Source of the DNA: a bacterium | GTDB taxonomy: Bacteria > Zhuqueibacterota > Zhuqueibacteria > Residuimicrobiales > Residuimicrobiaceae | NCBI GenBank assembly: GCA_029554865.1 | Contig: JAKPUX010000228.1 | Location: 25,883 to 89,882 of the forward strand | Length of the DNA: 64,000 bases | Direction of reading: 5' to 3' | In this document: in pieces, positions 33,823 through 57,231 of the stretch | Layout: each line of letters opens with the position of its first letter | Numbering within the stretch: position 1 is the first letter of the stretch | Translations under genes and position numbers: made by a program | Notes under the pieces: generated by a model | Told to the model about the DNA's origin: nothing | Databases searched by the model: none | Seen by the model: only the letters and a program-made list of their open reading frames with translations

Positions 33823-34371
33823 CTAAAAAAACTGTGCAAGGATCTCCTTGCGCGGGGAGGGAATGACGATCTTTTCCACCAGCAGTCCGCGGCGTTTGAC
33901 CACGGCCGCGCCGGCGTCGACGGCGGACTGCACAGCGGCGACGTCTCCCGTCAGGGTGACATAGGCCTTGCCGCCGATGGCCATGGCGATATGGATTTCG
34001 AGCAGATCGACGGCGGCGGCCTTGACCGCAGCATCGGCGGCCTCGATGGCGGAGGCGACCGAAAAGGATTCGATGATGCCGAGGGCGCGCAGTTCCGGGG
34101 TATGGGAAATGCCGCTCAGGGCGGGGAAGACGCTGCGGTGGACATTGGGGATGACAAAATGGTCGACCACCTGATGGCCGCCCAGCTCCACTCCGGTCTC
34201 GATGCTCGCGTTGACGTCATCGACATCGCCGTTGACCAGGACCATATATTTGCCCGGGCAGATGGTGCGATTGACCACCACCTCGACCAGGGCCCGCTTG
34301 ACCATCGCATCTGCCACCTCGATGCCTTTGGCGATGCTTGAGAGTTCGACCAGACCTATTGCAGCAGCCAT
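33823..34371 (-). CDS. pduT: BMC-T shell protein, PduT-like (tandem BMC domains, Fe-S cysteine)
   Basis: 182 aa; two BMC domains; conserved RTICPGKYM matching the PduT [4Fe-4S]-ligating KTICPGKF. Confidence 0.85.
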   Translation of the reverse strand: MAAAIGLVELSSIAKGIEVADAMVKRALVEVVVNRTICPGKYMVLVNGDVDDVNASIETGVELGGHQVVDHFVIPNVHRSVFPALSGISHTPELRALGIIESFSVASAIEAADAAVKAAAVDLLEIHIAMAIGGKAYVTLTGDVAAVQSAVDAGAAVVKRRGLLVEKIVIPSPRKEILAQFF

Positions 34372-34395
34372 GATACTATCCTGCCTTGTAATTTG

Positions 34396-35745
34396 TTAAC
34401 CCTTGATGACGATACTTTTTTCGGATACGGCGGCGACGATGCCGGAGATGGAGGCGTGCACCGGGCAGCCCAGTTTTTCCTCGGCCACCTCGGCGATGAC
34501 CTGCCCCTTGACGACCCGGTCCCCGCTTTTGATCACAGGGACCGCGGGGGCCCCAATGTGCTGCTGCAGGGGCAGCTCGACCTCGGCCGGTGCAAAGTTC
34601 AGCTCCCTGAAGTGGGCCTTGCGGTCGTAGGGCTTGATGCCCAGGCGCTGATAGAGCATGGTGATCGGAATTTCACGGCTGCTGCGCACGGGATGGACAT
34701 CGAGAAAGAGCTCCTTAAGCTCTTCAGTGGTGCGCGAGATCTGTTTCTCGCGCAGCAGCTTTTTGGCGTCGACGCAGATGTTCTTGGGATCGAGCTTCTC
34801 CGGGCAGCTGAAGAGCGAACAGATATTGCATTCGCAGCAGTAGGCCGCCCAGAGTGAGTAGCGCTCCTTCTCGCTGCCGGTCATGAGCAGCGAGCGCATC
34901 ACCTTGTGCGGCTGGATCGGATAGCCGAGCAGGTAGCGCGGGCAGAGCTCAGTGCAGAGCGTGCACTGATCGCAGCAGCTGTGGCCGATGCGTTGATACT
35001 GGGCGGGCGGGGTAAGTTTGCGCACTGCCACCGGATGGTCCGCGGGCAGAAAAATGAGGCCGCCGTTGGTCTTGACGACGGGCAGGGCGAGATCGTTCTC
35101 GACTCCGCCCATCATGATGCCGCCGGTGAAGACCACCGGGCGGTTGAGGGTGGTGCCGCCGGCGAGAGCGAGGAGGTCGCTGAAGCGGGTGCCGACCGGG
35201 ATGCGCACGGTCATGGCTTCGCCGACGGCCCCGGTGATGGTGACATATTTATCCGTTACCGCATCTCCGCGCACGGCGCGGGCGATGTTGACAATGGTTT
35301 CGACGTTGTTGACGATGGCGCCGACATGCAGGGGCAGGCCGCCGGGGGGAATCTGCCGGCCGGTGATCTCGTAGACCAGCACATACTCGTCGCCGGCGGG
35401 ATAGACATCCTCCATGATGAAGAGGTCAAAGCCGAGTTTTTCGGCATCGGGCCGGAGGAGGGCGGCGACGTCGCTGTTCTTGCGCTTGACAGCTATGGTC
35501 ACCCTGCGGGCTCCGGTGAGCTGCTGCATGATCGACAGCCCTTCCAGGAGAAGCTCCTTTTCCTGGAGCATGACCTCGCGATCCTTGTACATCATCGGTT
35601 CGCATTCGGCGCCGTTGGCGATGATCTGTTCGACGCGGGCGTCCAGTTTTTTATAGGTGGGGAATCCCGCCCCTCCTGCGCCGACAACCCCTGCGGCGCG
35701 TATTTTCCGGAGGATGGTGCTGTTATCTTCCATCAGAATGCTCAA
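34396..35745 (-). CDS. pduS: PduS-like RnfC-family flavo/Fe-S oxidoreductase
   Basis: 449 aa; AGVVGAGGAGFPT NADH/FMN motif, two ferredoxin-type Cys clusters (CCDQCTLCTELCP, CCECNICSLFCP) and a C-terminal barrel-like domain; start could be M1 or M5. Confidence 0.75.
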   Translation of the reverse strand: MSILMEDNSTILRKIRAAGVVGAGGAGFPTYKKLDARVEQIIANGAECEPMMYKDREVMLQEKELLLEGLSIMQQLTGARRVTIAVKRKNSDVAALLRPDAEKLGFDLFIMEDVYPAGDEYVLVYEITGRQIPPGGLPLHVGAIVNNVETIVNIARAVRGDAVTDKYVTITGAVGEAMTVRIPVGTRFSDLLALAGGTTLNRPVVFTGGIMMGGVENDLALPVVKTNGGLIFLPADHPVAVRKLTPPAQYQRIGHSCCDQCTLCTELCPRYLLGYPIQPHKVMRSLLMTGSEKERYSLWAAYCCECNICSLFSCPEKLDPKNICVDAKKLLREKQISRTTEELKELFLDVHPVRSSREIPITMLYQRLGIKPYDRKAHFRELNFAPAEVELPLQQHIGAPAVPVIKSGDRVVKGQVIAEVAEEKLGCPVHASISGIVAAVSEKSIVIKG

Positions 35746-36562
35746 AGGTTTGATTCATGGTGATGGCCAGGGGAGTCAAATAGAGGGGTTCCGAGGGCAG
35801 AATGACCTCCAGGCCCGGCAATTCGGCGGCGAAGATATCGGCTGCGCCCGGGAAGCAGCAGGTGCCGCCGCTGAGATAGAGTTGTTCGACCGGACGGTCG
35901 GCGAGATGGGTTCTGATGATATCCGCCATCTTTTCAAAGACCGGCTGGATGATGGGCAGAATCTGCGCAGCGTCTGGGCCGCGCTTGATCGCTTCCGCTT
36001 CTTCATAGGAGATGCGTCGATTGCCGGCCAGGGTGAGGGTGACATGCCGGCCGCCGGTGGGCTCGTCGGCGGAATAGACGATCCGTCCCCCTTCGACGAC
36101 GGAGATGCCGGTGGTGCCGCCGCCGATGTCGACGACGGCGCCGCGGTCGATCTCGAGCAGCCGGGCCACCACCGAGGGTTCGTCGAGCATTCCGGTCACA
36201 TTCAGATTGGCAGCCTTCAGAACGTTGACGCAGGCATAGGGATCAGTGCCCGGAGGGAAAGAAGTGGAGGCGGTGGTGAAGTGCTGACCGAGTTTCTCCT
36301 CCGCTTTGGCGACCAGGGACTTGACGATCTGAATGGCCCCGAAATAGTCGAGCACCACCCCGTCGCGAACAACATCGGCCCATTCGAGAAAGGCGGCATG
36401 GGGCTCGCCGCTCTCGTCGCAGGCGATGAGGACGACGTCGGCGGTGCCGAGGTCGATGCCCAGGTGGCAGGGAGGGGCTCCGGTCACCCGCCGCTTGTTG
36501 TTGACCAGGGCGGCGACGCGCCGCAGGCGTTGATTCACCCTATCCAGTGCGGACATGGTCAT
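35723..36562 (-). CDS. eutJ: ethanolamine utilisation protein EutJ (actin/Hsp70-like ATPase)
   Basis: Start at MTMSALDRV immediately after the aldehyde dehydrogenase stop (the ORF track extends to 36706 across the upstream gene); ASKHA ATPase motifs LGIDLGTADVV and VVDIGGGTTGISV. Confidence 0.8.
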   Translation of the reverse strand: MTMSALDRVNQRLRRVAALVNNKRRVTGAPPCHLGIDLGTADVVLIACDESGEPHAAFLEWADVVRDGVVLDYFGAIQIVKSLVAKAEEKLGQHFTTASTSFPPGTDPYACVNVLKAANLNVTGMLDEPSVVARLLEIDRGAVVDIGGGTTGISVVEGGRIVYSADEPTGGRHVTLTLAGNRRISYEEAEAIKRGPDAAQILPIIQPVFEKMADIIRTHLADRPVEQLYLSGGTCCFPGAADIFAAELPGLEVILPSEPLYLTPLAITMNQTFEHSDGR

Positions 36563-36564
36563 CC

Positions 36565-37980
36565 TCAGACAATGCGGAAATGGTCGACGATGACGCAGCG
36601 GCGCAGGCGGACGAAGGTGCGGCTGCAGGTAACTCCTTCGCCGGTGGGGGTGGAGATGGTCATCGAGGTCCAGCCCTCCCCTCCGAAGCCAAGGCCGGCG
36701 ATGCACGGGCCGTTCTTGACGAAGATGCTGGTGTTAATCTCGCGCGACATGCGGTGGAGATGGTCGATGTTGCGCGAATGCATCGCGGCGGTATGGTGCA
36801 GCCCGTGTTCGAGCTCGATGGCGAGATCGATGGCGGCGTCGGCGTTGGCGGCGCGGATGAGGGAAATGACCGGCATCATCAGTTCGATCTGGGCGAAGGG
36901 ATGGGACTTGTCGGTTTCGGTGAAAAGCAGGCGCGTATCCGGGGGCACCTGGATGCCCGCCTCGCGGGCGATGACGGTGGCGTCCCGGCCGACCATCTTG
37001 CGGTTGATGACCGGATTGGGCCCGGGATACTCCTTCAGGATGACCTGGGCTACGGCCTCGGCCTGGCGGGCGTCAAGCTCGACTGCGCGGTTCTTCGCCA
37101 TTTCGCGTTTAAGCTGATCGGCGACGCTGTCGACGACGATGATTTCCTTCTCGTCGGCGCAGATGATGTTGTTGTCGAAAGAGGCGCCGGAAACGATGCA
37201 GGCGGCAGCGTGGGGGATATCCGCGCTCTCGTCGACGACCACCGGGGGATTGCCGGCGCCAGCGGCGATGAGACGCTTGTCGGTCTGGCGCCTCGCTTCA
37301 TGGACCACGGCCTCGCCGCCCGTGACGACAAGCAGACCGATGCCCGGGTATTTGAAGAGCTGCTGAGCGGTCTCGATGGTGGGCTGGGCCACGGCGGTGA
37401 GCAGGTTGTGGGGTCCGCCGGCAGCCACCACCGCTTCATTGAGCAGGCTGATGGTGCGCTGCGAGACCCGTTTGGCCGCCGGATGAGGCGCAAAGACCAC
37501 CGAGTTGCCGGCACTGACCATGCTGATCGCATTGTTGATCACCGTGGCCGCCGGATTAGTCGAAGGGGTCACTGAGGCGATGACGCCCCAGGGGGCGTTC
37601 TCGATCAGGGTGAGGCCGTGATCACCCGAGATCGCCTCGGCGTGGATCACCTCAGGGCCGGGGGTCCTGAGGGCCTGCGAGGTGTTCTTCGCCACCTTGT
37701 CCTCGACCCTGCCCATGCCGGTCTCCTCGACCGCCAGTTCGGCCAGTTCACGCGCGTGGCGTGCGCCGGCTTCACGCATGGCGAGAATAATCTTGTCCCT
37801 GAATTCCAGATTGCCGATTCTCTTCTGCGCGGCGGTTGCGGCGGCGACCGCTTCGTCGAGGGTCGCGAAGATACCGGCGGGCAGCGCGGATCTGCCGGTG
37901 GTATCACCCGACGTTGTGGTGCGCATGCGTTCTACCACCGCCTCGACGATGCGGGCGACCTCTTGTTGACTCAAATCCAT
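36565..37980 (-). CDS. eutE: CoA-acylating aldehyde dehydrogenase (EutE/PduP-like) with N-terminal encapsulation peptide
   Basis: 471 aa; ALDH-fold catalytic Cys region (NNIICADEKE), amphipathic N-terminus MDLSQQEVARIVEAVVERM. Confidence 0.9.
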   Translation of the reverse strand: MDLSQQEVARIVEAVVERMRTTTSGDTTGRSALPAGIFATLDEAVAAATAAQKRIGNLEFRDKIILAMREAGARHARELAELAVEETGMGRVEDKVAKNTSQALRTPGPEVIHAEAISGDHGLTLIENAPWGVIASVTPSTNPAATVINNAISMVSAGNSVVFAPHPAAKRVSQRTISLLNEAVVAAGGPHNLLTAVAQPTIETAQQLFKYPGIGLLVVTGGEAVVHEARRQTDKRLIAAGAGNPPVVVDESADIPHAAACIVSGASFDNNIICADEKEIIVVDSVADQLKREMAKNRAVELDARQAEAVAQVILKEYPGPNPVINRKMVGRDATVIAREAGIQVPPDTRLLFTETDKSHPFAQIELMMPVISLIRAANADAAIDLAIELEHGLHHTAAMHSRNIDHLHRMSREINTSIFVKNGPCIAGLGFGGEGWTSMTISTPTGEGVTCSRTFVRLRRCVIVDHFRIV

Positions 37981-37998
37981 TACGGGTTCTCCCTCTTA

Positions 37999-38295
37999 TC
38001 AGGCCGATTCACTTTTCTGATAGAGCACCCCGGCCTCCGAACTTACGGTATCGATGATGCCGACGATGGTGAGATCGATCGGCGTAGCGTTGTTGATGGA
38101 AACGCGGGCGGAGCTGCCGCGCACCACCAGGACCCACTCCCCCTCGCCGGCTCCGATGGTGTCGAGGGCGACCTGGGTTTTACCCGCCGCCTTGCCGTGT
38201 TCATCGATAAACCGGACGAGCAGCAGTTTGCCAATGGCCAGTTGCTCCATTTTGACGGTGGAGACCACCTGGCCGACCACTTTTCCGAGTTCCAT
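37999..38295 (-). CDS. eutN: BMC vertex (pentamer) protein EutN/CcmL family
   Basis: 98 aa; MELGKVVGQVVSTVK...GKLLLVRF... BMC-P signature. Confidence 0.85.
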   Translation of the reverse strand: MELGKVVGQVVSTVKMEQLAIGKLLLVRFIDEHGKAAGKTQVALDTIGAGEGEWVLVVRGSSARVSINNATPIDLTIVGIIDTVSSEAGVLYQKSESA

Positions 38296-38368
38296 AGGTA
38301 CCTCTGCAGGTGCCTGCGAGGCGCTTTACGTCCCCGGCCGGACGGCCAGGGACGGGCACGCCTGCAGA

Positions 38369-38656
38369 TTACTTGATCTCGCCTTTCATCTTGATCGGGA
38401 AGATATCTTCCAGATCGCCATGGGGGCGCGGAATGACATGGACCGAAATCAGCTCGCCGATTTTCTGGGCGGCGGCTGCGCCGGCATCCGTGGCTGCTTT
38501 ACAAGCCGCAACATCGCCGCGCACAAGGGCGGTTACATAACCGGATCCGATCTGATGGAATCCGACCAGCTTGACCCGCGCCGCTTTGACCATCGCATCC
38601 GAGGCCTCGATGAGCGCCACCAGACCACGGGTTTCAATCATACCCAATGCTTCCAT
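38369..38656 (-). CDS. eutM: BMC-H shell protein EutM (copy 1)
   Basis: 95 aa; [32 protein letters not shown]..., near-identical to canonical EutM. Confidence 0.9.
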
Positions 38657-38682
38657 ACCACTTTCTCCTTTCCTTGGAAAAA

Positions 38683-38973
38683 TTACCCTTCAATAGTGCC
38701 TTTCATCTTGATCGGGAAGATATCTTCCAGATCGCCATGAGGACGCGGGATAACATGTACGGAGATCAGTTCGCCGATTTTCTGCGCCGCTGCGGCGCCG
38801 GCGTCAGTGGCCGCCTTACAGGCCGCGACATCGCCGCGCACCAAGGCGGTCACATAACCGGACCCGATCTGGTGGAACCCCACCAGTTTCACTCTCGCCG
38901 CCTTGACCATAGCATCCGAGGCTTCGATCAGCGCGACAAGTCCTCTGGTTTCGATCATTCCCAGTGCTTCCAT
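38683..38973 (-). CDS. eutM: BMC-H shell protein EutM (copy 2)
   Basis: 96 aa; protein identical to copy 1 over the first 92 residues, with a different C-terminal tail. Confidence 0.9.
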
Positions 38974-39011
38974 GAGTTACTCCTCGTTAGTTATTGGTAT
39001 GTTGAAAGAGA

Positions 39012-39995
39012 TCAACTTCTCGCCATATAAGCGGCTGTCATGGAGATTTCGACGATATCCTCCCAACTGCAGCCGCGGGAGAGGTCATGCATTGGTTTGC
39101 ACAGCCCCTGCAGGAAGGGGCCGAGCGCCTTGAATCCGCCCAGACGTTCCACCAGCTTGTAGCCGATATTGCCTGCGTTGAGATCGGGGAAGATGAAGAC
39201 ATTGGCCTGGCCCGCCACCGGGCTCCCCGGGGCCTTTTTGGCGGCGACCGCCGGCACAAAGGCCGCATCGAACTGGAGTTCGCCGTCCACCTTGAGATTG
39301 GGGGCCTTGGCCTTAACCAGCTCCGTCGCCTGCCGCATCTTGTCGACCTTGGCGTGGCTGGCGCTCCCCTTGGAGGAGAAGGAGAGCATCGCGACCCTGG
39401 GTTCGTTGGCGGTCAGCCGTTCATACTGCGCGGCCGTAGCCACAGCGATGTCGGCCAGCTGCTCGGGGGTCGGATCGGGGAGCACCGCCGCATCGGCAAA
39501 GGCGTAGACCGACTCGCCGTCGGGGGAGATCATCGCAAAAAAGCTCGAGACCGTGCGCAGGCCGGGGGCCACGCCAAGGACGTGAATAGCCGCGCGCAGC
39601 ACATTGGCCGTCGACGACAGGTTGCCGGCGATGCAGAGATCCGCCTGGGCGTCGCGGAGCAGCATGGCCCCCATGTAAAGGGGATCATCGAGGCGCTGGC
39701 CGGCCTCATAGGCGGTCATGCCCTTCTCCTTGCGCGACTCGTGCAGGATGCGCACATAACGTTCGCGCTCCGGCACATGCTGGGGATGAAGGATGACCAG
39801 ACCGCGGGTCGGGATGTGCACCTTGTCCGCGAATTCCCGCAGTTCGAAGCGGCCGCCGAGGAGGATGGGCTGGGCGAGGCGTTCATCCTTGAGGTAGCGG
39901 GCCGCTCGCAGCACCCGTTCATCGCGGGCGTCGGGAAAGACAATGCGGCGCGGCTGCCAGCGGCAGTATTCGGTGGCGAGATGGATCAGCTTCAT
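39012..39995 (-). CDS. pta: phosphate acetyltransferase (Pta/EutD-type, short form)
   Basis: 327 aa; phosphate acetyl/butyryltransferase family (…[19 protein letters not shown]…SSKGSASH…). Confidence 0.85.
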
Positions 39996-40816
39996 CGTTC
40001 GAGCACCACTTTTTCGAGAGTGAGCTGTTTGCCCTGTTCGGCCAGCAGGGTCAGCAGCATGAGCACATAGAGGGCGCTGCTGAGGCGATTGGCCGCCTGG
40101 ATCAGATCGGGACGGGTGACGGTGAGGTCCGGGGCGATAAAGACCCTGGCGGCCTCGACCTCCGCCTCACGCACCTGGGCGCGCAGCAGATTAAGCAGCG
40201 CCACATTACGGCCGTGACTCATCTCCGGGACGATGTGGTCGTGGCCCAGATACTTGAGGGGGTTGTGCGAGACCGCATGGACCACATTTTCATCGGCGCC
40301 GCCGAGGGCGATCGGGATCATCGTCTCCCCGCTCACCTCGCTTTTAAGCAGATTGCCGAGGTAGGAGCGGACGTCCGCGAGATAGGGGTGGAGCCAGGGG
40401 AACTTGTTCTCGCGATCGAATTCGATCTGGACCAGGACCGTGTGAGCGATCAGGGTGTCGATCTTGCCGCGCAGGGCGATGCGGGGGTGGTTCTTGACCA
40501 CCATGGTGTTGGTATCCAGATGGGTGAGGGCTTCAGGTTTCTTCGCCACCGGCTGATGGCAGAGCAGACACTCCGCCTTCTGGCCTCCGGTGCTGCTGGT
40601 CAGGGGATGTACCTGCACGGGAGCCTCCTCGCCGCTCTTGTCCGGATTGAAGACCCGGCCTTCGGCGTCGATGTATTTGATGACGATCTTGCGTTCTTCG
40701 AGCAGCTGATGCGCGGCCGGGGTCAGTCGGCTGTCGAGGGGGAGATGGACCTCGGTGCCCCAGCCCAGACCGAATTTTTCGCGCAGCCAGCCCTCGGTGA
40801 TATATTCGGAAGCCAT
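39992..40816 (-). CDS. eutT: EutT-type cobalamin adenosyltransferase
   Basis: 274 aa; recalled EutT blocks [68 protein letters not shown]. Confidence 0.75.
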
Positions 40817-40820
40817 ACGC

Positions 40821-41588
40821 TTATCCCTGTTTTTGCGACGCCCAGTCCGCCGGATAGGTCACGTACATGATCTTGGTATAGGTGGGCGTGCCGAAGATGA
40901 TCTGGCTGCCCTTGGGGATGTAAAATACATCCCCCACCTTGCCCTCGAAGCATTTGCCGTTGATGGTGATGGCCAGGGTGCCCTGGAGGACGATGTCGAT
41001 CTCGTCGTAATTGAGGGTCCAGGCGAAGGAGTCCATCTTGCGCCAGGACATGAATCCGGCGCACATAGGCGAACGGTCCGTCGAGGTGATGACGTCGGCG
41101 AGGCGCACCTGTTTACCGGGCCCGGCCTCTGGCATGATATCCATACGCACCGAGCCGCCGCGCACCACGATCAGGCCGCTGTCGTCGACCACGCGCTGGC
41201 AGCAGGGGGCAGTGGGGGCGAGGGCCGCGGTGATGGAGGGCTGGCTCACGGGCAGGGGTGAAGGCGACGGCGGACAGGCTGCGGGCGGCTGCTGCAGCTG
41301 TTCCGCGACCAGCCGGGCGATCGTGGCGGGGTCGCGTTTGTCCGCGGGCAGCCGCTGGATGACCTGGGCGGCGATGGCTTTGACCAGCTCCTGGTCGCCG
41401 CCGGCGGCCTGGGCCCTCTGCTGCAGGGGGCAGCTCTCGCTTCCCGGCTCGACGAAGCAGATGCCGAACTTGGCGGCCAGGGTGGCTGCTTCGGGGGTGA
41501 TGATGGTCGTCTGCACCGAGGCCGGCAGCTCCTTGATGCCAGCGGTGCAGGCTTCTTTTATGGTCTGGGCTGTGATCAGTTTTTTCAT
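40821..41588 (-). CDS. eutQ: ethanolamine utilisation protein EutQ (cupin)
   Basis: 255 aa; N-terminal MKKLITAQ...IITPEAATLA and C-terminal cupin AGFMSW...WTLNYDEIDIVLQG...GDVFYIPKGSQIIFGTP matching EutQ. Confidence 0.85.
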   Translation of the reverse strand: MKKLITAQTIKEACTAGIKELPASVQTTIITPEAATLAAKFGICFVEPGSESCPLQQRAQAAGGDQELVKAIAAQVIQRLPADKRDPATIARLVAEQLQQPPAACPPSPSPLPVSQPSITAALAPTAPCCQRVVDDSGLIVVRGGSVRMDIMPEAGPGKQVRLADVITSTDRSPMCAGFMSWRKMDSFAWTLNYDEIDIVLQGTLAITINGKCFEGKVGDVFYIPKGSQIIFGTPTYTKIMYVTYPADWASQKQG

Positions 41589-41601
41589 TTTGGTTTCCTT
41601 T

Positions 41602-42069
41602 TTACTCTCCCGGATGGACGGCAGAAAAGGGCTCCCTGCTCAGAAAACGGCGCAAGGCATCGATGCTTTCGGGCTGGTAGACCGAGACCGGATAGATGGG
41701 GCCCTGGATGCCCGCATCCCGGATGAGCTCCTCGACCTCGGAGACCCGGGCATCCTCAAGATCGATTTTGGAAATGACGCCGATGATTTGTTTGGTCTCA
41801 TAGATATGAAACAAGCCAAAAGGCAGTTTGCGCTCCAGGGAGTTGGCCTGGTGCACATAGACAATGGTCTGGATATCGGTCATGGTCGAGATGAGCGCCG
41901 TATAGAGCCGGGGATTGTCAAAGTACTCGCCCGGGGTGTCGATGGTGCACTCATCGTGAAAGACCAGGGCCTGGGTTTTCTGGACCTCCCCCAGCCGGCC
42001 GAGCAGGGCTGCAAAGAGAGTCGACTTGCCCACCCCGGTGCCGCCGATGAGGATAAAATTGTTGAGCAT
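41602..42069 (-). CDS. eutP: EutP/PduV-family GTPase
   Basis: Start at [17 protein letters not shown] (the ORF track extends to 42318 in another gene's frame); P-loop plus DTPGEY switch; ATGA overlap with the eutS stop. Confidence 0.85.
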   Translation of the reverse strand: MLNNFILIGGTGVGKSTLFAALLGRLGEVQKTQALVFHDECTIDTPGEYFDNPRLYTALISTMTDIQTIVYVHQANSLERKLPFGLFHIYETKQIIGVISKIDLEDARVSEVEELIRDAGIQGPIYPVSVYQPESIDALRRFLSREPFSAVHPGE

Positions 42070-42428
42070 CAGGTCACCGTCACCGCGCAGGGGGTGTAGT
42101 TGAGAATCTCCTGCAAGGTCTTGTTGACCGATTTGAGTGCCTCCTCGACAGCACCGACCTCGCCATGGATCACCAGGGCGCCGGTGAAGCGGTCGAGAAA
42201 CCCGATCTGGACGTTGGCGGCCTTGACGGCGATATCGCCGGCGATCATGGCGGTCTCGCCCGGGGTGAGGGTCATAATGCCGATGGCATTGACGTAGGGG
42301 ATGCCGATTTTTTTGCACACCTCCTCACCCGGATGGGCGATCATATGGGCCAGGGTCACCTGCTTGCCTGGCACATACTCCTGGATGATGCGCTCTTTGT
42401 CCTGATAGGGGTTTCTCGAATCTTCCAT
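42069..42428 (-). CDS. eutS: circularly permuted BMC shell protein EutS/PduU
   Basis: 119 aa; ...[26 protein letters not shown]...[33 protein letters not shown]... matching EutS. Confidence 0.9.
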
Positions 42429-42429
42429 T

Positions 42430-43194
42430 TCAGTCCTGCATTCTGGCCAACAGGGCCCTGGTCAGCTCGCCGTATTCGAGCGCGCCGCGGGCGGAGGGGG
42501 CATAGCGGAGGATCGGTTCCCCGGCGCGGGCCGCTTCCGCCAGTTTGATATTCATGCCGATCACGGTCGGCAGCAGCAGATCGCCGTAGCGCTGCTTGAG
42601 GGTGTCGTAGACTTCGGCCGCGCTCCTGGTACGGCGGTCGAAGTGGGTCACAAAATAGCCGAGGGTGCGCAGGCGCGGATTGAGATGCCGCCGCGCTTTG
42701 GAGAGCATGTCGTCGGTCACCTCGAGGCCGGCGACGGCCAGGTACTGGGCCTGGACCGGGATGAGGGCATAGTCGGCGATGGCGAGGGCGTTCATCGCCA
42801 GGGGCCCCATATTGGGCGGACAGTCGCAGATGACCAGGTCGAATTCCTGAGGGATCTGCTCCCGGCTGATGAAAAAGGCCTCCGCCGCATCCTCGGCGAC
42901 CTCAAGATAAAAGTCGGCGAGGGAGGGTTCGGCGGGCAGGCAGAAGAGCTGCTCATCCCCGGCCGGATGGATAGCCGCGGAGAGATCGCGGCTTGCGTCG
43001 ACGAGATAGTCGCAGAGGGTCTTGACCCGTCCGGCTCCGGGGCCGAAGCCGAGGTGGCGCGATGCTCCGGCCGAGGGATCGAAATCAGCGAGCAGGGTCT
43101 TGTGGCCGAAGCGGGCACACCAGGCGGCAATGTTGACTGCACTGGTGGTTTTGCCCACGCCGCCCTTGTTGTTGATGACGACGACGATCTTCAT
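42430..43194 (-). CDS. ParA/MinD-family P-loop ATPase embedded in the BMC operon
   Basis: 254 aa; deviant Walker [19 protein letters not shown] with signature Lys, Walker B LVICDCPP; start overlaps the eutK stop (ATGA); stop 1 nt before the eutS start. Confidence 0.85.
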
Positions 43195-43772
43195 TTTTTA
43201 TCCGTGAGCGGATAATACTTGCGCTGCATTTTTTCGATGACACCCTCATCCAGCAGGGTCTTGAGGACGCCAAGGATGGCGGGGCGGTCACACTTCAAGG
43301 CCGCGGCCAGTTCATCCGCGGTGCTGCCTGCGGGGCGGGCCTGGATATGGCGCAGGGCGCGACTGCTCAGGTCCGCTCCGGTGCGTTTGGGTTTTTCAGG
43401 TTGCGGGGTTTTAGCCGGTGGCTGGCCGCCCCGGCCCTGACCGCTCCCGCCCTTGCCCGAGCCCTTTCTCTGGCCCATGCCCTTGCGCTTCTTGCTGATC
43501 AACTCCTCGACCAGAAAGTCGGTGTCTCCATCAGGGCGCGGGATGACATGGGCCGAGATCAGTTCGCCGAAGCGGATGGCCGCGGCGGAGCCGGCGTCGA
43601 CAGCCGCCTGGCAGGCGGCGAGGTCACCCTCACAGACGATGGTCACCAGGGCCCGCCCAGGGTTGTGCTGTTTGATCAGGCGCACGCGGGCGGCCTTGAC
43701 CATGGCATCAGCTGACTCGATGGCGCAGATCAGCCCTCTGGTTTCAATAAAGCCGTAGGAGAGTCCAGCCAT
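43191..43772 (-). CDS. eutK: BMC-H shell protein EutK (BMC domain, basic disordered linker, C-terminal wHTH-like domain)
   Basis: 193 aa; N-terminal BMC domain ([23 protein letters not shown]...HVIPRP), Gly/Lys/Arg/Pro-rich linker, C-terminal roughly 60-aa helix-turn-helix-like module as in EutK. Confidence 0.8.
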   Translation of the reverse strand: MAGLSYGFIETRGLICAIESADAMVKAARVRLIKQHNPGRALVTIVCEGDLAACQAAVDAGSAAAIRFGELISAHVIPRPDGDTDFLVEELISKKRKGMGQRKGSGKGGSGQGRGGQPPAKTPQPEKPKRTGADLSSRALRHIQARPAGSTADELAAALKCDRPAILGVLKTLLDEGVIEKMQRKYYPLTDKK

Positions 43773-43780
43773 AAAAAGCC

Positions 43781-44446
43781 TCAGCCCAGCATGAAGTAGA
43801 TGGGATTGCGCGCGATATCGAGTACGGTCTCCTGGAAGGCATCGCAGGCGGCTTTGCAGGCGGCCTGGGTGCCGGTGAGCAGACCTCCGGAAAAGTTGGT
43901 CTCGGAGGGCGGCGCAAAATAGAGGCAGAGGCGCACGTTGGCGGCCTTCATCGCCTGGTCGAGGGCGTAGGTGGCCTCGAGCGGCGGTGCGATCAGATAG
44001 GAGAGGGGCTCACCGGGAGTGATGCCGGCCACACCCGAGAGATAACTGCCGGTGCGGGCGATGAGGTGCGGGAAGAAGGTCAGGCTGTTGGCCTCGTTGG
44101 CTGAATACCAAATCGCTTCGTTTTCGAGATAGTCGAGGGCGGCCTGGATGCCGGCCTGGACCTCGCCGGGATTGGGGCCGGCCAGCATGGCGATGATCTC
44201 GCCGGAGAGGGGCCCGGAGGCGTGCGCAGCGCCGGCGTAGAAGGATTTGGCATAGACCACTTCGACTTCGGCCTTTTTGGTCGCCTCATCGATGCTGACG
44301 TAGAGGGCATCATCGATATCGGCGGTGATAAGGCCAAGGCTGCGCTGTTCGGGCTTGAGTTTGAGCTCGGCATGGAGTCCTGCATCCACCGAGGAGATCA
44401 GGCGGACGGCGAGGGGCCGGGCTTTGATGGGATCGAGGATTGCCAT
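43781..44446 (-). CDS. eutL: BMC-T shell protein EutL
   Basis: 221 aa; close match to recalled EutL throughout (…RSLGLITADIDDALYVSIDEATK…GPNPGEVQAG…SRTGSYLS…PPSETNFSGGLLTGTQAACKAAC…ARNP). Confidence 0.9.
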   Translation of the reverse strand: MAILDPIKARPLAVRLISSVDAGLHAELKLKPEQRSLGLITADIDDALYVSIDEATKKAEVEVVYAKSFYAGAAHASGPLSGEIIAMLAGPNPGEVQAGIQAALDYLENEAIWYSANEANSLTFFPHLIARTGSYLSGVAGITPGEPLSYLIAPPLEATYALDQAMKAANVRLCLYFAPPSETNFSGGLLTGTQAACKAACDAFQETVLDIARNPIYFMLG

Positions 44447-44476
44447 AATTTCTGTCCTGTCGCTAGAGTATACACA

Positions 44477-45367
44477 TTATTTCAGGTTGATGCCACTGGT
44501 TTTTTGGGCGATCATTTTCTTGACGGTATCGACGATCACGGCCGAAGCCTCGACCGGGGGGGTACCGAGCTTGTGAATGTTCGAGATCACGGTCCGGTCC
44601 GACTCGACGGTGGTGGCGACCGCGGGGCGGTAGACCATGTAGGCGCTCATGCTCTCAGACTGGCCGAGGCCGGGGCGCTCGCCGATGAGGAGGACCACCA
44701 CGTCGGCCTGAAGGTGCTCGCCGATCTCATCCTCCACCTTGACACGGCCGTATTTCACAAAGAAGGGGGTCCCCACCTTCAGGCCGGCCGACTCAAAGCC
44801 CTTGACCAGGGGGGGAAGGATTTCATCATAGTTGGCGGTCATGGCGTCCGTGGAAAGGCCGTCGGAGAGAACGATCTGCACCTGGGGTTGGTGGATGCAT
44901 TTTTCGCTGATGAGCCTGCGCCCCTCCTCCGAGAGCATGCGGCCGAGATCGGGCCGGGTCAGGTATTCGTCTTTGTCGGAGACCTGGGTCTGCACGATGA
45001 ACAGGCCGGTGCGTGTGGTCCACTCCTCGGGGATCTCCTTGAAGACGGTGTCGCGCGACAGGGAGTGATCGGCGAGGAAGCGCAGATAAGGCAGGGTACG
45101 GCTGCGGGTGCCGGTGCGGCCGACGGCGACGCGGGCATTGGTGGCGGCGCGCAGATCGCCCAGGGCCTTGGCGTTGTTGGGCTGCCCGATCCCGATCCAA
45201 CGCTTGACCTCCTCCCCGGCCAGGTCGGGCAAGGGGCCCTCGCCGGCTGTGGAGGGGGCGGGCGCAGGCGCTGCGCCTGCACTCTGGAGAGGACGGGGGG
45301 CGGCCGCCGGCGAGTTCATCTCCTGCAGCACCGCGTTGACAATGGCTTCAATCTGTTTTTGATCCAT
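44477..45367 (-). CDS. eutC: ethanolamine ammonia-lyase small subunit EutC with N-terminal encapsulation peptide
   Basis: 296 aa; N-terminal [17 protein letters not shown] helix, Pro/Ala linker, conserved EutC core. Confidence 0.9.
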
Positions 45368-45385
45368 GATTATCGGTCTCCAGAT

Positions 45386-46747
45386 CTAGAAAAATATCGA
45401 CGCATCGCCGGCCTTTTCGGTCAGCATACCATTTTTCATGATGCCCATCTTTTCGAGCCAGGCTTCAAATTCCGGGGCGGGACGCAGTCCCAGGGTGGCG
45501 CGGATGGTGGCAGTGTCGTGATAGGCGTTGGTCTGATAGTTGAGCATGATGTCATCGCCGAGGGGAACGCCCATGACGTAATTGATACCTGCTGCGGCGA
45601 GGAGGACGGTCAGGTTCTCGAGTGCGTTCTGGTCGGTGTTGGCATGGTTGGTGTAGCAGGCATCGGCCCCCATCGGAATGCCGTGGAGTTTGCCCATGAA
45701 ATGATCCTCGAGTCCGGCGCGGGTGATCTGGCGGCCGTCATAGAGGTACTCGGGCCCGATGAAGCCGACCACGGTGTTGACCAGGAAGGGGCGATAGCGC
45801 CGGGCCAGGCCGTAATTGCGCGCCTCGAGGGTGACCTGATCGGCGCCGTTATGGGCCCCGGCGGAGAGGGCCGAACCCTGGCCGGTTTCGAAGTAAAGCA
45901 TGCTCGAGCCGGCGATGCGGCAGTATTTCTTGCCCACCTCATAGGCCTCGTCGAGGAGTTCGACGGTGATGCCGAATTCCTTGAGCCCCTTCTCGGAGCC
46001 CGAGATGCTCTGGAAGATGAGGCCGGCCGGCGCGCCGTCGCGGATGGCGGCCATCTGGGTGGAGACGTGGGCGAGGACGCAGCTCTGGGCCGGGATCTGC
46101 CACTTGTCGATGATCTCCTGGATGCAGATAAGCAGCTTTTTGACATTTTCGGGCGAATCGATACAAGGGTTGATGCCGATCACCGCGTCGCCGACCCCAT
46201 AGGAGAGCCCCTCGTATATCTGCGCGGTGATGCTTTTGAGATCATCGCGCGGGTCATTGGGCTGAAGGCGGGCGCTGAAATGGCCCGGCAGACCGACGGT
46301 GGTATTGGCCTTGCTGACCACCGGGATGCGTTTGGCCGCATAGATGAGGTCGAGATTGGACATCAGTTTGGTGCAGGCCGCCACTATTTCGGAGGTCAAC
46401 CCCCGGCGCAGACGCTGGATGTCCTCCGGGGTGGTCCGGTCGCAGAGGACGTACTCGCGCAGTTCTCCCACTGTCCAGTTGCGGATCTCGGCAAAAACAT
46501 TCTCATTGACGGCGTCCTGGATCACGCGCGTGACTGCATCCTCCTCATAGGGGATGACCGGATGGTTACGCAGATCGGCCAGACTGAGGTTGGCGAGCAC
46601 ATATTTGGCGGCGACACGCTCCTGCGAGGTCTCGGCGGCGATGCCGGCGAGGACGTCGCCCGAGCGCAGCTCGTTCGCCTTGGCGAGGACATCCTTGATA
46701 TCCTTGAATTGATAGGTTTTCCCGAACAGCAGGGCGCTGAGCTTCAT
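45386..46747 (-). CDS. eutB: ethanolamine ammonia-lyase large subunit EutB
   Basis: 453 aa; MKLSALLFGKTYQFKDIKDVLAKANE... and full-length EutB similarity. Confidence 0.95.
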   Translation of the reverse strand: MKLSALLFGKTYQFKDIKDVLAKANELRSGDVLAGIAAETSQERVAAKYVLANLSLADLRNHPVIPYEEDAVTRVIQDAVNENVFAEIRNWTVGELREYVLCDRTTPEDIQRLRRGLTSEIVAACTKLMSNLDLIYAAKRIPVVSKANTTVGLPGHFSARLQPNDPRDDLKSITAQIYEGLSYGVGDAVIGINPCIDSPENVKKLLICIQEIIDKWQIPAQSCVLAHVSTQMAAIRDGAPAGLIFQSISGSEKGLKEFGITVELLDEAYEVGKKYCRIAGSSMLYFETGQGSALSAGAHNGADQVTLEARNYGLARRYRPFLVNTVVGFIGPEYLYDGRQITRAGLEDHFMGKLHGIPMGADACYTNHANTDQNALENLTVLLAAAGINYVMGVPLGDDIMLNYQTNAYHDTATIRATLGLRPAPEFEAWLEKMGIMKNGMLTEKAGDASIFF

Positions 46748-46761
46748 CTGCTTCTCCTCAA

Positions 46762-48198
46762 TTAGGATGGAAAGGCCAAAGATTTGACGGTCAGGGGCAC
46801 AATATCACCGCCGAAATAGCTTTTGCCGATATCTATGTAATCCCCCTCGCGGGTGTTCACCTCATCGATGACCGCGAGGGCTTTGGGTTTGATCAGGGGC
46901 TCGAGTTCCATGCCGAGCACCTTGCCGACATCATTGGCTGAGATTATGATCGCCGGATGGGCCGGATCGGGGTATTCCCGATAGAGCCGGGCCAGGGCGG
47001 AGGCGCACTGGACCACCGCGCGATAGGTCACCGGCATGGCGGCCGAGAGGGCGATGGCGAAGAGGTCGGCGCCGGGATCGAGGTCGTGACGCCGGGCGGC
47101 CTGCAGTATCTCGCCATATATCTCCGGCTCGGGCTGCTGCCAGTCGATCGCCGGATGCAGCACCGGGATGTTGCGCAAGGGCAGTTTCTCATAAGCGACC
47201 CAGATGGTGCTGCCGCTCAGCGAGAGCGAATAGGCACCGGCGCCGATGACGGTGGCGCGGATCGTCTGCCTGGGAAGCCGGACCGGATAGGCCTGCAGGC
47301 GGGGGTGAGTACGCAATGCATCAGCCAGAATGGGCCCAAGATCCCTGAAGTAAAAGGGATCACCTTGGGTCAATTGCGGATGATAAAAGCATTCACCCAC
47401 ACCGCCGGAGATGAAGAGGGCGTCCAGTTTGCCGGGCTCCTTCAGAGGCGGGGTCATGAGCAGTTCCTCGAGCAGGGGCGAGGAGAGGCCTTCGATAAGG
47501 TCGACGACGAGGTCGGCCATGCGCTGGGCTGTGCGCTCGAGATCAGCGCGGGTCAGGGCGTTGTTCTGGGGGATGGAGCCCGGGAAGAGGCTGCGCAGCA
47601 CCCTGGAGGCCGGTTCCCGTACCCGGGTGACCCGGCCGGCCGGATCGGTCTCGATGAGATGGCCGCCGACGTTGAGACAGGCGGTATCGATGACGCGGCC
47701 GTTATCAAAGAGCACATAGTTGGAGGTTCCGCCGCCGATGTCGATGTTGAGGACGCGGGCGGAACGGCTGTCGGAAAAATCGGCGGCTCCCGATCCCCGG
47801 CCGGCGATGACCGACTCCAGGTGGGGGCCCGCTGTAGCGACAACGAAATCGCCGAGGCGGTCGGCGAGGGTCATGATGGAACGGCGGGCGTTGCTCGCCT
47901 TGGAACTCTCGCCGGTGATGATGATCGCGCCGGTCTCGATCTCGTTGAGGGTTCTGCCGGCACGGGCATATTCACTTTGGAGCAGGGCGAAGAGCTGCTC
48001 TTCATCGATGGAACCATCCTCGTGCACGGGGGTCATGTGAATGGCGCTCTCGTAGAGGATGCGGCGCTCGCTGAATTCGTAACGCGGCACCTGGGTGGCG
48101 GGTGCGCGGTTGATCAGTTCGAGCGCGGAAAAGATCAGCTGCAGGGTGGTGGTGCCGATATCGATGCCGACACTGTCTATTTTCTTGGTTTCACTCAA
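46762..48198 (-). CDS. eutA: ethanolamine ammonia-lyase reactivase EutA
   Basis: 478 aa; tandem ASKHA ATPase repeats (GIDIGTTT...; NIDIGGGTSN). Confidence 0.9.
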   Translation of the reverse strand: MSETKKIDSVGIDIGTTTLQLIFSALELINRAPATQVPRYEFSERRILYESAIHMTPVHEDGSIDEEQLFALLQSEYARAGRTLNEIETGAIIITGESSKASNARRSIMTLADRLGDFVVATAGPHLESVIAGRGSGAADFSDSRSARVLNIDIGGGTSNYVLFDNGRVIDTACLNVGGHLIETDPAGRVTRVREPASRVLRSLFPGSIPQNNALTRADLERTAQRMADLVVDLIEGLSSPLLEELLMTPPLKEPGKLDALFISGGVGECFYHPQLTQGDPFYFRDLGPILADALRTHPRLQAYPVRLPRQTIRATVIGAGAYSLSLSGSTIWVAYEKLPLRNIPVLHPAIDWQQPEPEIYGEILQAARRHDLDPGADLFAIALSAAMPVTYRAVVQCASALARLYREYPDPAHPAIIISANDVGKVLGMELEPLIKPKALAVIDEVNTREGDYIDIGKSYFGGDIVPLTVKSLAFPS

Positions 48199-48255
48199 AT
48201 CGCCGCGCTCGTAAAGAGGGCCGGAGGGGACAAGCCCCTCCGGCTGTTGAAAGAA

Positions 48256-49491
48256 TTACTTCAGGAGTTTCGCTTCCGATTTGCCGACTGAAATGGTTTC
48301 GGACTGGGGCAAAAGCAGACCGGTGTTCTCGTTGCGGCCCTGGAGGATGAAGCGCGGAGTCTTCTCCGTCATCTGTTCCACGGCGAGCTTGCTGGCCTTG
48401 CCGATCGGGCCGCCCTTGAGGCGGTTGAAGATCAGGGCCAGTTTCATGCCCTTGAACTCGGTGATCATCTCATAGTCGCCGTCGCTGTCGGAGGCGGAGA
48501 AGATCGGATCGCCGCGATGGCCGAGCACCTTTTTGATGGCTTCCACTTTGCCCATGCGCTGGGTCTGCACCCAGCCGGTCTTGTACTGCGGCAGCAGTAT
48601 GTTATTTTTCACTTCCAGTTCCATGGCAATGACCTTGTTGGGGTCGATGTTGTAGCCGAAATTGCCAGGGGCGCCGAAGGTCTGGACCACCTGCTTGAGG
48701 CTGGCGGAGCAGATGTAAACGTCGATGCCGGCTTTCATCATCGATTCGGTCAGATCCTGCATCTCGGGATGGACGCGCAGGCCGCTCTTGTAGGTATAGT
48801 CAATCGGACCGGCCTTGCAGGCGAAGTTGCAGGGGGCTTTCCAGGTCACCTTGGTCAGTTTGTCGTTAAGAGCGAAGGTGATCGCATCTTTGGCCAGGGC
48901 CTGAACCTCTTCGACGGAGTGATTGGCCAGGAAGAAGAGCACCCAGGGATAGCCGTAGACAGCCTCGATGCCGGCGGTCTCGCAATAGCCGTCATAGAGG
49001 AAGGGCATCTTGGTGATGAAATCCTTGAACTGCGGGGTCTCGCGGATCTCTTCAATGGTCATCTTGCCGACGCCGAAGCCCGCATAGTTGTCATGCAGGA
49101 ATTCATAGGCGGAGATGATGTCGGCGTTGATGTCGGCCAGCTTGATGTTTTTGTAATCGGCATTGAGCTGCTTGACACCATTGACCTCGTCCTTGAAGAG
49201 GGCCTTGAACTCTTCCTTGCTCAGCTTGAACTTGAGATTCCAGAGCTGATGACGGAAGGTCGCCTCTTCGCAGTCAAGATGGGCCATGGTCTGGTCCCAG
49301 TCGAGAGCGACGTAGGGGGGATTCTTCTTGTCGTAGTACTTGCCGCCCACACCATAGTCCTTGATGAACTTGGAAAGGACTTCGTAGTTGCGCGGGGACC
49401 AGTTCATTTTGTTGAGGGCATAAACGGAGCTGGTGCCCAGGAAAAGAACAGCGATGAGAAGCAGGGCTATCGGGAGAAAAAATCTCTTCAT
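48256..49491 (-). CDS. secreted HAD-superfamily phosphatase (signal peptide, DxDxT motif)
   Basis: 411 aa; N-terminal signal peptide MKRFFLPIALLLIAVLFLGTSSVYA; HAD motif I DWDQTM, motif IV-like SASDSDGD; lower GC than flanking genes. Confidence 0.55.
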   Translation of the reverse strand: MKRFFLPIALLLIAVLFLGTSSVYALNKMNWSPRNYEVLSKFIKDYGVGGKYYDKKNPPYVALDWDQTMAHLDCEEATFRHQLWNLKFKLSKEEFKALFKDEVNGVKQLNADYKNIKLADINADIISAYEFLHDNYAGFGVGKMTIEEIRETPQFKDFITKMPFLYDGYCETAGIEAVYGYPWVLFFLANHSVEEVQALAKDAITFALNDKLTKVTWKAPCNFACKAGPIDYTYKSGLRVHPEMQDLTESMMKAGIDVYICSASLKQVVQTFGAPGNFGYNIDPNKVIAMELEVKNNILLPQYKTGWVQTQRMGKVEAIKKVLGHRGDPIFSASDSDGDYEMITEFKGMKLALIFNRLKGGPIGKASKLAVEQMTEKTPRFILQGRNENTGLLLPQSETISVGKSEAKLLK

Positions 49492-49527
49492 GATTGTGAC
49501 CTCCGGTTGATTAGGGATTTGGGTTGC

Positions 49528-50595
49528 CTAGAACTCCACCCAGAACTGGGTGACAAAGCGCAGGTTGCCTTTGGATTCATCGCCAACCTTGAAGCCGTCG
49601 CGGACGACGTTGAACATCAGATAGTTCTCGCCGATGATCTTGTAGTTGAGGCCGGCGAGGATCATGTTCCACTCATCATTGTCCACATCGCCATTGGGAT
49701 CGAGCTGGCCATACTCGCCGACGAACATCAGGTTCGGGAGGATGTTATAGTTGACATAGCCCATGTAGGTCAGGCCACTGACGCCATCGAGTTCGGGGAC
49801 CGCCTCGACGTTCTTCTTGCCGGTAGTGACTTCAACACCGACATCGAGCTTCTTGTCGATGGCGTACTCAGCGCCGCCGCCGATCCAGAAGTTGTTGTCC
49901 TTGTTGCTGGCCTTGTTGTAGTAATCGGTCATGGTCCAACCGAAAACGGAGAGGCCGGCTACCGGTTTCAACCAGATGTCAGCGATGACGTTTTTGGCTT
50001 TGTTGTCTTCTTTGGCATAGCTGTAGGTGTTCTTGTTGGCCACGGCGAGGCGGGCATAGCCCTTGACGCCCAGGCTGGCCGGGAGGTTGTAGGTCGCCAT
50101 GGCGCCGGTGACGGCAGAGCTGTAGCCATTGTCAAAAGCGGTGCCGCTGACGTAAGCGAAGCGGTCGATCCACGAATTTTCGATGGTGTTGTGGTAGCTC
50201 TGAGCTCCCGGCTGCTCATAGTTGCCAAAGAGCATCTCGAGGCCCGGCAAACCCAGGAAATTCTTGAACTGAATGTAGGCGTACTTGATGCGGGCGTTGG
50301 TGCCCTGATTCAGCAGTTTGCCGTTCTGGGGGTCGGTGTAGTTGCGGTGGTTGAAATCCAGGGTGTAGCGCATCGCGATGTTGTCCGAGTATTTGTATCT
50401 CATCGTGACATAGCCGCGATCGAAGTAGAAGTAGTTGGAGGTTGCTTTGGTGTAGGGTTCCTCGACCATGTAGCGGTAGCGCAGAACGGTCTGGAAGGTG
50501 AGTTTGTCGTTGAGCTTTTCAGCCTGGGCCACGCTCGAGGCGAAGATCAGAACTACCAGCGTCAACAGGATGGTAACGGTGAGTTTTTTGTACAT
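49528..50595 (-). CDS. outer-membrane beta-barrel porin
   Basis: 355 aa; signal peptide, alternating amphipathic beta-strand pattern rich in Tyr/Gly/Asn, C-terminal ...FWVEF with terminal Phe; lower GC. Confidence 0.6.
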   Translation of the reverse strand: MYKKLTVTILLTLVVLIFASSVAQAEKLNDKLTFQTVLRYRYMVEEPYTKATSNYFYFDRGYVTMRYKYSDNIAMRYTLDFNHRNYTDPQNGKLLNQGTNARIKYAYIQFKNFLGLPGLEMLFGNYEQPGAQSYHNTIENSWIDRFAYVSGTAFDNGYSSAVTGAMATYNLPASLGVKGYARLAVANKNTYSYAKEDNKAKNVIADIWLKPVAGLSVFGWTMTDYYNKASNKDNNFWIGGGAEYAIDKKLDVGVEVTTGKKNVEAVPELDGVSGLTYMGYVNYNILPNLMFVGEYGQLDPNGDVDNDEWNMILAGLNYKIIGENYLMFNVVRDGFKVGDESKGNLRFVTQFWVEF

Positions 50596-50669
50596 ACTAC
50601 TCCTCCTTAGATTGGGGTTTGGGTGGATTGATCAAGCCGTGGAGCCACCGGCCGCGATCTTTCGTTTGC

Positions 50670-51929: not shown

Positions 51930-51967
51930 CTTTTCTGCTTCCTTCCGGGTTTAGCTGTTCTCTGCTG

Positions 51968-57199: not shown

Positions 57200-57231
57200 C
57201 TCAACCTCTTTGGTAGATTTGATCCCGACCC

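Follow-up and report, generated by a model that had tools for sequence, protein, structure and literature searches.

The window analysed here, a stretch of 64,000 nucleotides from contig JAKPUX010000228.1 of the Residuimicrobiaceae assembly GCA_029554865.1, contains a whole eut bacterial microcompartment (BMC) operon of about 20 genes, which runs on the minus strand from eutG to a pduT-like gene (33823-53188) and was delimited by Pfam and NCBIfam matches and by gene order. Among the shell genes of this operon lies a gene encoding a Soj-like ATPase of the ParA/MinD family (254 amino acids; 42430-43194, minus strand), a member of a clade found only beside EutK-like shell genes. It is preceded by a eutK homologue (43191-43772, minus strand), identified by hhalign, BLASTP, and Pfam, whose product of 193 amino acids combines a BMC-H domain with a C-terminal extension and is proposed here to act as the adaptor of the ATPase.

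The stop codon of eutK and the start codon of parA overlap in the sequence ATGA (43191-43194, minus strand), so that at this junction, which reads AAAATGAAG, the ATG and the TGA have 4 nucleotides (nt) in common. At the other end, the parA stop codon TGA is followed by a single base and then by the ATG of eutS (GGACTGAAATGG). The coordinates and both junctions, on the minus strand, agree with the original prediction, a reading of the sequence alone that had placed a ParA-type ATPase, translationally coupled to EutK, at this site. The downstream gene eutS encodes a permuted BMC-H protein (42069-42428, minus strand; NCBIfam EutS, 2e-53), and the BMC-T gene eutL is located 8 nt upstream of eutK (43781-44446, minus strand; NCBIfam EutL, 1e-103). 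Other junctions in the operon are similarly tight, with a 1-nt overlap between eutS and eutP and an ATGA overlap between eutT and pta, and every gap measured from eutG to eutE is of 74 nt or less. Because abutting and overlapping junctions are frequent across the operon, the eutK/parA overlap reflects operon membership and by itself no special relation between EutK and ParA; a specific link between the two is indicated because the pair is conserved across loci.

The gene order, eutG-eutH-orf355-orf411-eutA-B-C-L-K-parA-S-P-Q-T-pta-M-M-N-E-J-pduS-pduT, is a rotated version of the E. coli order with parA at the eutK/eutS junction, as had been predicted, and the same order is present in the related loci L001/L002, L087, and L166. 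In the window and in E. coli K-12 alike, eutK follows eutL in a eutABCLK block, but in K-12 the next gene is eutR and there is no ParA gene. The expectation that classical eut operons lack a ParA gene was borne out in K-12, the sole classical operon checked.

Sequence and fold of the ATPase and the EutK homologue

The ATPase contains the canonical deviant Walker A motif (KGGxGK[ST]) that had been recognized in it before (residues 8-17; 43144-43173, minus strand; read from the sequence), with the signature residue Lys10 and the catalytic residue Lys15. Residues K10 and K15, the Walker A' and Walker B aspartates D37, D39, and D124, and R188 are invariant in 30 family members and, judged by these motifs, the enzyme is catalytically intact. 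R188 is the equivalent of the DNA-binding residue R189 of Soj, a second basic position is kept as K217, and R187 is an extra, family-specific arginine beside R188; these conserved basic residues are compatible with nucleoid binding but are no proof of it. The clade differs from Soj at thirteen positions that are invariant within it, and the clade-specific invariant residues include N9, H47, C61, E89, F95, Y96, F108, Q150, and R187. Within this set, the aromatic group formed by F95, Y96, and F108 provides candidates for a partner surface.

The best Pfam match of the protein was AAA_31 (4e-35), followed by CbiA (6e-17), and in NCBIfam only sub-threshold matches to ParA partition, RepA, BcsQ, and MinD models were obtained, the ParA_partition model scoring 89 against a cutoff of 180. 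An AlphaFold2 model was obtained with a predicted local distance difference test (pLDDT) value of 88 and a predicted template-modelling score of 0.90. Its closest Foldseek matches were chromosomal Soj/ParA structures (2BEK, 9A6N; template-modelling (TM) score 0.88-0.91, 36-38% identity), consistent with the ParA/Soj fold, and a sequence search of solved relatives yielded Tth Soj (1WCV; 4e-45, 37% identity) and 8RAY (5e-38). McdA-like structures ranked far lower against the model (TM 0.82, 20% identity), and 6NON and 6NOO, the only solved McdA-like proteins compared, matched the sequence at 2e-8 with 20% identity. Because its sequence groups with chromosomal Soj and not with McdA, the ATPase is placed outside the McdA family and would be McdA-like in its working at most.

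A protein search with the ATPase yielded about 113 clusters at 42-92% identity and E values of 1e-60 or lower, followed by a gap to an E value of about 1e-47. When the alignment columns were resampled 50 times for a neighbour-joining tree with 30 Soj sequences, the clade was monophyletic in every case. Members with a named source were from Calditrichota, Ignavibacteriota, a "Bacteroidetes" metagenome-assembled genome (MAG), and unclassified MAGs of digesters. The sequence of the window protein is deposited as HOH06217.1, and a close relative is annotated as "Soj" in bacterium ADurb.Bin431.

Three other identities were considered for the ATPase and rejected. With the NCBIfam MinD equivalogs, whose cutoffs are 213-508 bits, the score was only 46-48 bits, the C-terminus coincides with that of Soj and lacks a membrane-targeting helix, and neither minC nor minE is located nearby. 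A CobQ/CobB-type amidotransferase was discarded since the 254 residues comprise a P-loop domain only, with no amidotransferase domain. A role as an Fe-S carrier (Mrp/NBP35) had been considered from a CDC motif in the window protein and from the pduS and pduT genes, but the cysteines are not conserved and the family consensus is FDSPPNMG.

The EutK homologue is predicted to have the architecture that had been proposed for it, a BMC-H domain, a basic disordered linker, and a winged-helix tail. The BMC-H domain comprises residues 1-93 (43494-43772, minus strand; Pfam BMC 3.5e-24, pLDDT >90) and is followed by a disordered linker rich in lysine and arginine (about residues 94-132; 43377-43493, minus strand; pLDDT <50 for residues 96-131), a winged helix of three helices and a beta-hairpin (residues 133-188; 43209-43376, minus strand; pLDDT about 90), and a short basic tip (43194-43208, minus strand). 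The AlphaFold2 model on which these boundaries are based was built on a 57-sequence alignment. A nine-member family profile aligned with E. coli EutK over 162 columns, the C-terminal domain included (hhalign 99.9%), and BLASTP between the window protein and E. coli EutK gave 35% identity end to end. The edge residue Lys26 (KAA motif) and the PRP motif are retained, K26 and P80 being invariant; the edge lysine and the PRP motif mediate facet contacts and tiling of BMC-H proteins (PMC8217296).

A family profile made from the tail only matched the C-terminal domain of E. coli EutK (3I71) with an E value of 0.002, among helix-turn-helix (HTH) regulators, and the tail showed weak Pfam matches to MarR and TrmB and a weak similarity to Lrp. 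A phmmer search of the tail against the PDB gave no significant match, and in a fold search the complete EutK model gave mainly matches to its BMC domain, which were uninformative on the tail. Since the window protein does not reach the Pfam model EutK_C (PF16365) at an E value of 1e-3 or lower, the tail is probably a divergent relative. Its invariant residues are G149, K171, D175, E180, K181, and Y186, of which only three are kept in E. coli EutK, K171, D175, and E180 being those that are not. In the winged-helix core, the net charge is modest, with a median of +2, and varies between -5 and +7. Close to the C-terminus of all ParA-linked EutKs, only a few residues before the end, an invariant tyrosine lies in a [KR]Y[YF] motif (43191-43230 in the window, minus strand), and E. 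coli EutK has the same C-terminal tyrosine (SRYRL). This residue recalls the C-terminal aromatic residue reported in McdB-like proteins of non-carboxysome BMCs (PMC8359340).

The linker differs between the ParA-linked EutKs and those of enterobacteria. Its median length in 84 ParA-linked EutKs is 39 residues with a net charge of +9, and the charge is at least +4 in 87% of them, whereas 115 enterobacterial EutKs have a linker of 21 residues and a net charge of +1, with at least +4 in only 5%. In the window protein, the 45-residue stretch between the two domains carries a net charge of +9. A basic linker or at least two lysine or arginine residues in the C-terminal tip were found in 81 of the 84 ParA-linked proteins. 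Known partners of ParA/MinD proteins act on the ATPase via a positively charged disordered region (PMC10241942).

Distribution of the EutK-ParA pair

A EutK-like BMC-H gene encoding 167-207 amino acids was found directly upstream of the ParA gene in all 18 loci of the clade that were inspected. Fourteen of these loci were reached from the ParA side and four from EutK-like matches; in all four of the latter, ParA lies immediately downstream, in one case as a truncated N-terminus at a contig end. The spacing between the two genes ranges from -26 to +12 nt, and the 4-nt ATGA overlap occurs in 7 of 14 loci. The survey of related loci that had been suggested together with the original prediction placed ParA beside a EutK-like gene in every clade locus inspected, and in three types of BMC locus, which strongly supports the predicted pairing and extends it beyond what had been seen in the window.

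Loci of the eut type with this cassette are the window, L001/L002 (76% identity), L087 (43%), and L166 (49%, Ignavibacteriae). In a second type, represented by L003/L004, the P0006 contig, L086, and L168, the order is K-ParA-M-M-AldDH-(J)-PduS-PduT (AldDH, aldehyde dehydrogenase), and the loci adjoin a divergent class II aldolase, AldDH, PduL, and three EutN genes. The third, Calditrichia-type arrangement is K-ParA-short cupin-Pta-M-M-AldDH-J-PduS-PduT and was found in L005 to L009 and in L167, which is part of a complete 5.0-Mb genome; within 10 kb of the L167 locus, a signature aldehyde-generating enzyme was not seen. In two of the three locus types, the K-ParA pair forms the first genes of the shell operon. 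The protein of about 100 residues encoded after ParA in the Calditrichia-type loci is a short EutQ-like cupin, with E values down to 5e-15 against the window EutQ (L167:10817-11119, L170:7396-7710, L172:4625-4933, L173:7334-7633, L005:1494-1808).

The public annotation of both genes is inconsistent. The EutK-like gene appears as a truncated hypothetical protein of 106 or 74 amino acids in some MAGs and as a "EutM precursor" in another, and it is called at L001:9684-10004 in one locus and at L002:9402-10004 in its counterpart, while the ParA proteins of the clade are named Soj or chromosome partitioning protein. Surveys based on annotation would miss the cassette because of this inconsistent naming.

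Pairwise distances of EutK and ParA were correlated (r=0.82; Mantel test, 0/5000), which shows co-inheritance, as expected of neighbouring genes. ParA-profile scans of genome and metagenome contigs yielded, among the matches listed, mostly chromosomal Soj and only eight family loci, and they were used as an outgroup control and not as an exhaustive survey. Among these listed matches, ParB was nearby in 125 of 152 outgroup Soj-like loci and a BMC gene in none of the 152, whereas the family loci had BMC genes in seven of eight cases, the eighth being a 1-kb contig, and ParB in none of the eight. The next-best ParA, P0118 (40% identity, outgroup), is located in a XerD-ParA-ScpA-ScpB context.

A search with 12 ParB seeds detected no ParB homologue in the 64-kb window, and the window contains one parS match at 3 mismatches, with 0.53 expected, which is not above chance. 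In the eight loci inspected for them, the DNA upstream of the cassette showed no centromere-like repeats. The window operon also encodes no McdB-like small disordered protein: the ParA gene is flanked by eutK (-4 nt) and eutS (+1 nt), and the sole unassigned open reading frames of the operon are secreted or lipoprotein-like.

Directly upstream of the operon lies a sigma-54 two-component module (54513-58683, minus strand; Pfam), consisting of a PAS histidine kinase, a Cache/HAMP sensor, and an NtrC-type response regulator, which is likely the regulator of the operon; neither EutR nor EutVW was present in the region examined around it. A scan of the operon for terminators and promoters yielded results at chance level. 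The operon is a hybrid, with genes for a pduS-like protein (RnfC/Complex1_51K, Fe-S) and a pduT-like protein (tandem BMC) at its end (33823-35745, minus strand) and an adenosyltransferase of the PduO type (PF01923) and not the EutT type (39992-40816, minus strand). Two tandem, near-identical eutM genes (95 and 96 amino acids; 38369-38973, minus strand) are kept as an M-M pair in every related locus, the non-eut types included. Between eutH and eutA lie two genes for proteins with signal peptides (48256-50595, minus strand), a HAD-like hydrolase of 411 amino acids and a 355-residue protein without a Pfam match. Both are kept in L001/L002 and absent from classical eut operons, and they may release ethanolamine extracellularly from phospho-headgroups.

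A candidate positioning cassette and its alternatives

We consider it probable that the EutK-like shell protein and ParA constitute a two-gene cassette that positions the microcompartment by means of a ParA gradient, that is, by a diffusion ratchet. The best reading of the comparative genomics is a Soj-derived, McdAB-like system in which a shell protein would take the part of the adaptor. The BMC domain of EutK would tile into the shell, and its flexible linker rich in lysine and arginine would be exposed, together with the winged-helix tail, on the cytosolic face. The extension is taken to be cytosolic because the termini of BMC-H proteins lie on the outward concave face in published shell structures. 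ParA-ATP dimers would coat the nucleoid, and the EutK extension would capture ParA, stimulate its ATPase activity, and clear it locally, and the organelle would then move up the ParA gradient. The expected outcome would be microcompartments that are spaced and inherited, as carboxysomes are by McdAB and DNA is by ParABS. The original prediction had likewise suggested a nucleoid-based segregation system with the shell as adaptor; its central pairing is supported by synteny in 18 of 18 loci. By sequence, the ATPase matches Soj at 4e-45 and McdA at 2e-8 and is no member of the McdA family.

Several points weigh against the positioning proposal. Adjacency and co-inheritance are expected of any two genes of the same operon. 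No feature of EutK is universal among the ParA-linked proteins, one sub-clade of which has a neutral linker, and the C-terminal tip is absent in 18% of them. For the contrast in the linker, the Enterobacterales, a narrow group, are the only ParA-less clade compared, and the presumed cytosolic orientation of the tail derives from shell structures in the literature. The EutK of Salmonella influences how BMCs are distributed in the absence of a cognate ParA, so that EutK may act independently of ParA, and one protein of a gas-vesicle cluster, near which no ParA is visible, has a similar winged helix.

An unlikely alternative is that ParA serves in assembly or quality control of the microcompartment, for example as an ATP-driven chaperone for incorporation of EutK, for closure of the shell, or against aggregation, and that the nucleoid is not used. 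The same synteny evidence applies to this role, the K-ParA pair stands first in the shell operon in two of the three locus types, and the biogenesis of Eut microcompartments in Salmonella is shell-initiated (PMC12487888). Characterised ParA/MinD ATPases, however, position or pattern on a matrix (PMC10241942), the DNA-binding arginine of Soj is invariant in the family, and ParA has neither a membrane-targeting helix nor a chaperone-like domain, all of which argues against assembly as its task.

Somewhat less likely still is that the winged helix of EutK binds DNA with ParA as its cofactor, the two forming a ParB/ParG-like pair that regulates the operon or tethers nascent shells to a chromosomal site. 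The winged-helix nature of the tail and its weak similarity to MarR, TrmB, and Lrp would fit such a pair, as would the second role that ParB-like proteins of type Ib have as repressors. Nucleic-acid binding has been proposed for E. coli EutK, as cited in PMC12487888. However, the sigma-54 two-component module upstream is likely a dedicated regulator, which leaves less need for the HTH domain of EutK in regulation. Moreover, the eight loci have no centromere-like repeats upstream of the cassette, parS matches are not above chance, and in the window the cassette is located in mid-operon with no intergenic DNA. The charge of the winged helix is modest and variable, and its invariant residues include two acidic ones.

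It is very improbable that the gene encodes an ordinary chromosome- or plasmid-partition ParA (Soj) that lies in the eut operon by chance, or a MinD- or CobQ-type protein, possibilities that had been named beforehand as ones that would speak against a positioning role. The closest solved relatives are indeed chromosomal Soj/ParA proteins (1WCV at 4e-45, 8RAY at 5e-38), and public annotation names the clade Soj or chromosome partitioning protein. However, the clade branches apart from Soj and is always preceded by EutK and never accompanied by ParB, and the 64-kb window contains no ParB and no parS above chance, all of which, with the synteny survey, contradicts a partition role. The MinD and CobQ identities fall with a MinD equivalog score of 48 against a cutoff of 508, a ParA_partition score of 89 against 180, and the lack of an amidotransferase domain.

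Relation to known systems and wider meaning

The proposed EutK-ParA positioning cassette resembles the McdA-McdB system of carboxysomes in that the ATPase is also encoded inside a microcompartment locus and has the signature lysine, as do alpha-McdA and beta-McdA type 2. Its presumed logic would also be the same, an ATPase gradient on the nucleoid and, on the cargo, a stimulator that has a charged disordered region (PMC8359340, PMC8262871). McdB is a small, disordered protein with an invariant C-terminal tryptophan, usually encoded beside mcdA. In contrast, the window ParA lies outside the McdA sequence group, there is no separate small McdB gene, and the candidate adaptor is itself a shell protein, a BMC-H fusion, whose charged region is internal or C-terminal and not N-terminal; the cargo would be a catabolic metabolosome. 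The Soj protein of the Soj-Spo0J-parS system is nearest to the cassette ParA both by sequence and by fold (TM about 0.9), and the ATPase motifs and the R189 equivalent are retained, but the cassette clade has no ParB or parS, has its own invariant residues, and is always preceded by a shell gene. The cassette ParA seems to have branched off independently from chromosomal Soj.

Enterobacterial EutK (PF00936 plus PF16365; 3I71) has the same architecture as the window protein, homology over its full length, and the same position after eutL, but it is followed by eutR and not by ParA, as seen in K-12, and its linker is short and near-neutral. PduK, a minor BMC-H protein, is also extended at its C-terminus, and we know of no ATPase partner for it. 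According to work cited in PMC13052382 and PMC12487888, loss of PduK leads to polar aggregation of Pdu BMCs. A gene for a EutP/PduV GTPase is present in the window operon as well, but PduV belongs to the Ras-like GTPases and not to the ParA proteins. The positioning of Pdu BMCs in Salmonella was affected by neither ParA nor MinD (PMC12866334). In a 2025 study of a Salmonella eutK deletion mutant, Eut BMCs were polar and static, showing that EutK controls their subcellular distribution; the authors speculated that EutK acts like or with ParB and left the mechanism undetermined (PMC12487888).

Part of this picture is already in the literature. ParA has been listed as an ancillary Pfam family of BMC loci (PMC4207490), McdA/B-like sequences were reported in or near four types of non-carboxysome BMC operon (PMC8359340), and these types include EUT and PDU as summarized in a later review (PMC13052382). 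The novelty claimed for the locus needs to be divided accordingly: the general idea, McdA-like genes near eut loci and a role of EutK in BMC distribution, is already published (PMC8359340, PMC13052382, PMC12487888), whereas no description of a EutK-ParA cassette was found in the full-text literature and the cassette is new as far as we could find, with a possible overlap with the EUT example of Figure 8f in PMC8359340.

A broader reading, which we regard as quite possible though short of probable, is that EutK-type shell proteins are adaptors that couple catabolic BMCs to a ParA motor, and that the cassette is a portable segregation module, recruited from Soj independently of McdAB and moved among at least three metabolosome types. 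If so, the EutK-dependent distribution of Eut BMCs in Salmonella would be explained, the same tail using the nucleoid or an ATPase encoded in trans, and the EutK-like winged helix might be a general surface module of protein organelles.

Tails of this kind were also seen outside BMC shell proteins. P0425 (L174:42-752, L175:42-752) is a protein of 236 amino acids in which a coiled coil at the N-terminus is combined with a winged helix at the C-terminus that is similar to the EutK tail (tail-profile E value 1e-6), and its gene is the first seen on the contig, in a gas-vesicle cluster with genes for a GvpN-like AAA protein, GvpL/F, GvpG, GvpO, GvpA, and GvpK. The proteins P0371, P0303, P0364, and P0384 contain one to three EutK-tail-like domains each. 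The EutK-type tail may be a surface module common to different protein organelles.

Reviews describe the organisation of metabolosomes as unclear, and the spacing and inheritance of catabolic BMCs are an acknowledged question. The cassette gives a concrete candidate pair of motor and adaptor, a dedicated ParA tied to EutK. On this evidence the adaptor could be part of the shell, which would be simpler than the McdAB design, and ParA seems to have been recruited to protein organelles a second time and independently. The two genes could also provide a compact module for distributing engineered microcompartments in heterologous hosts. Our finding overturns no paradigm, but it turns a question of metabolosome cell biology into a defined two-protein experiment.

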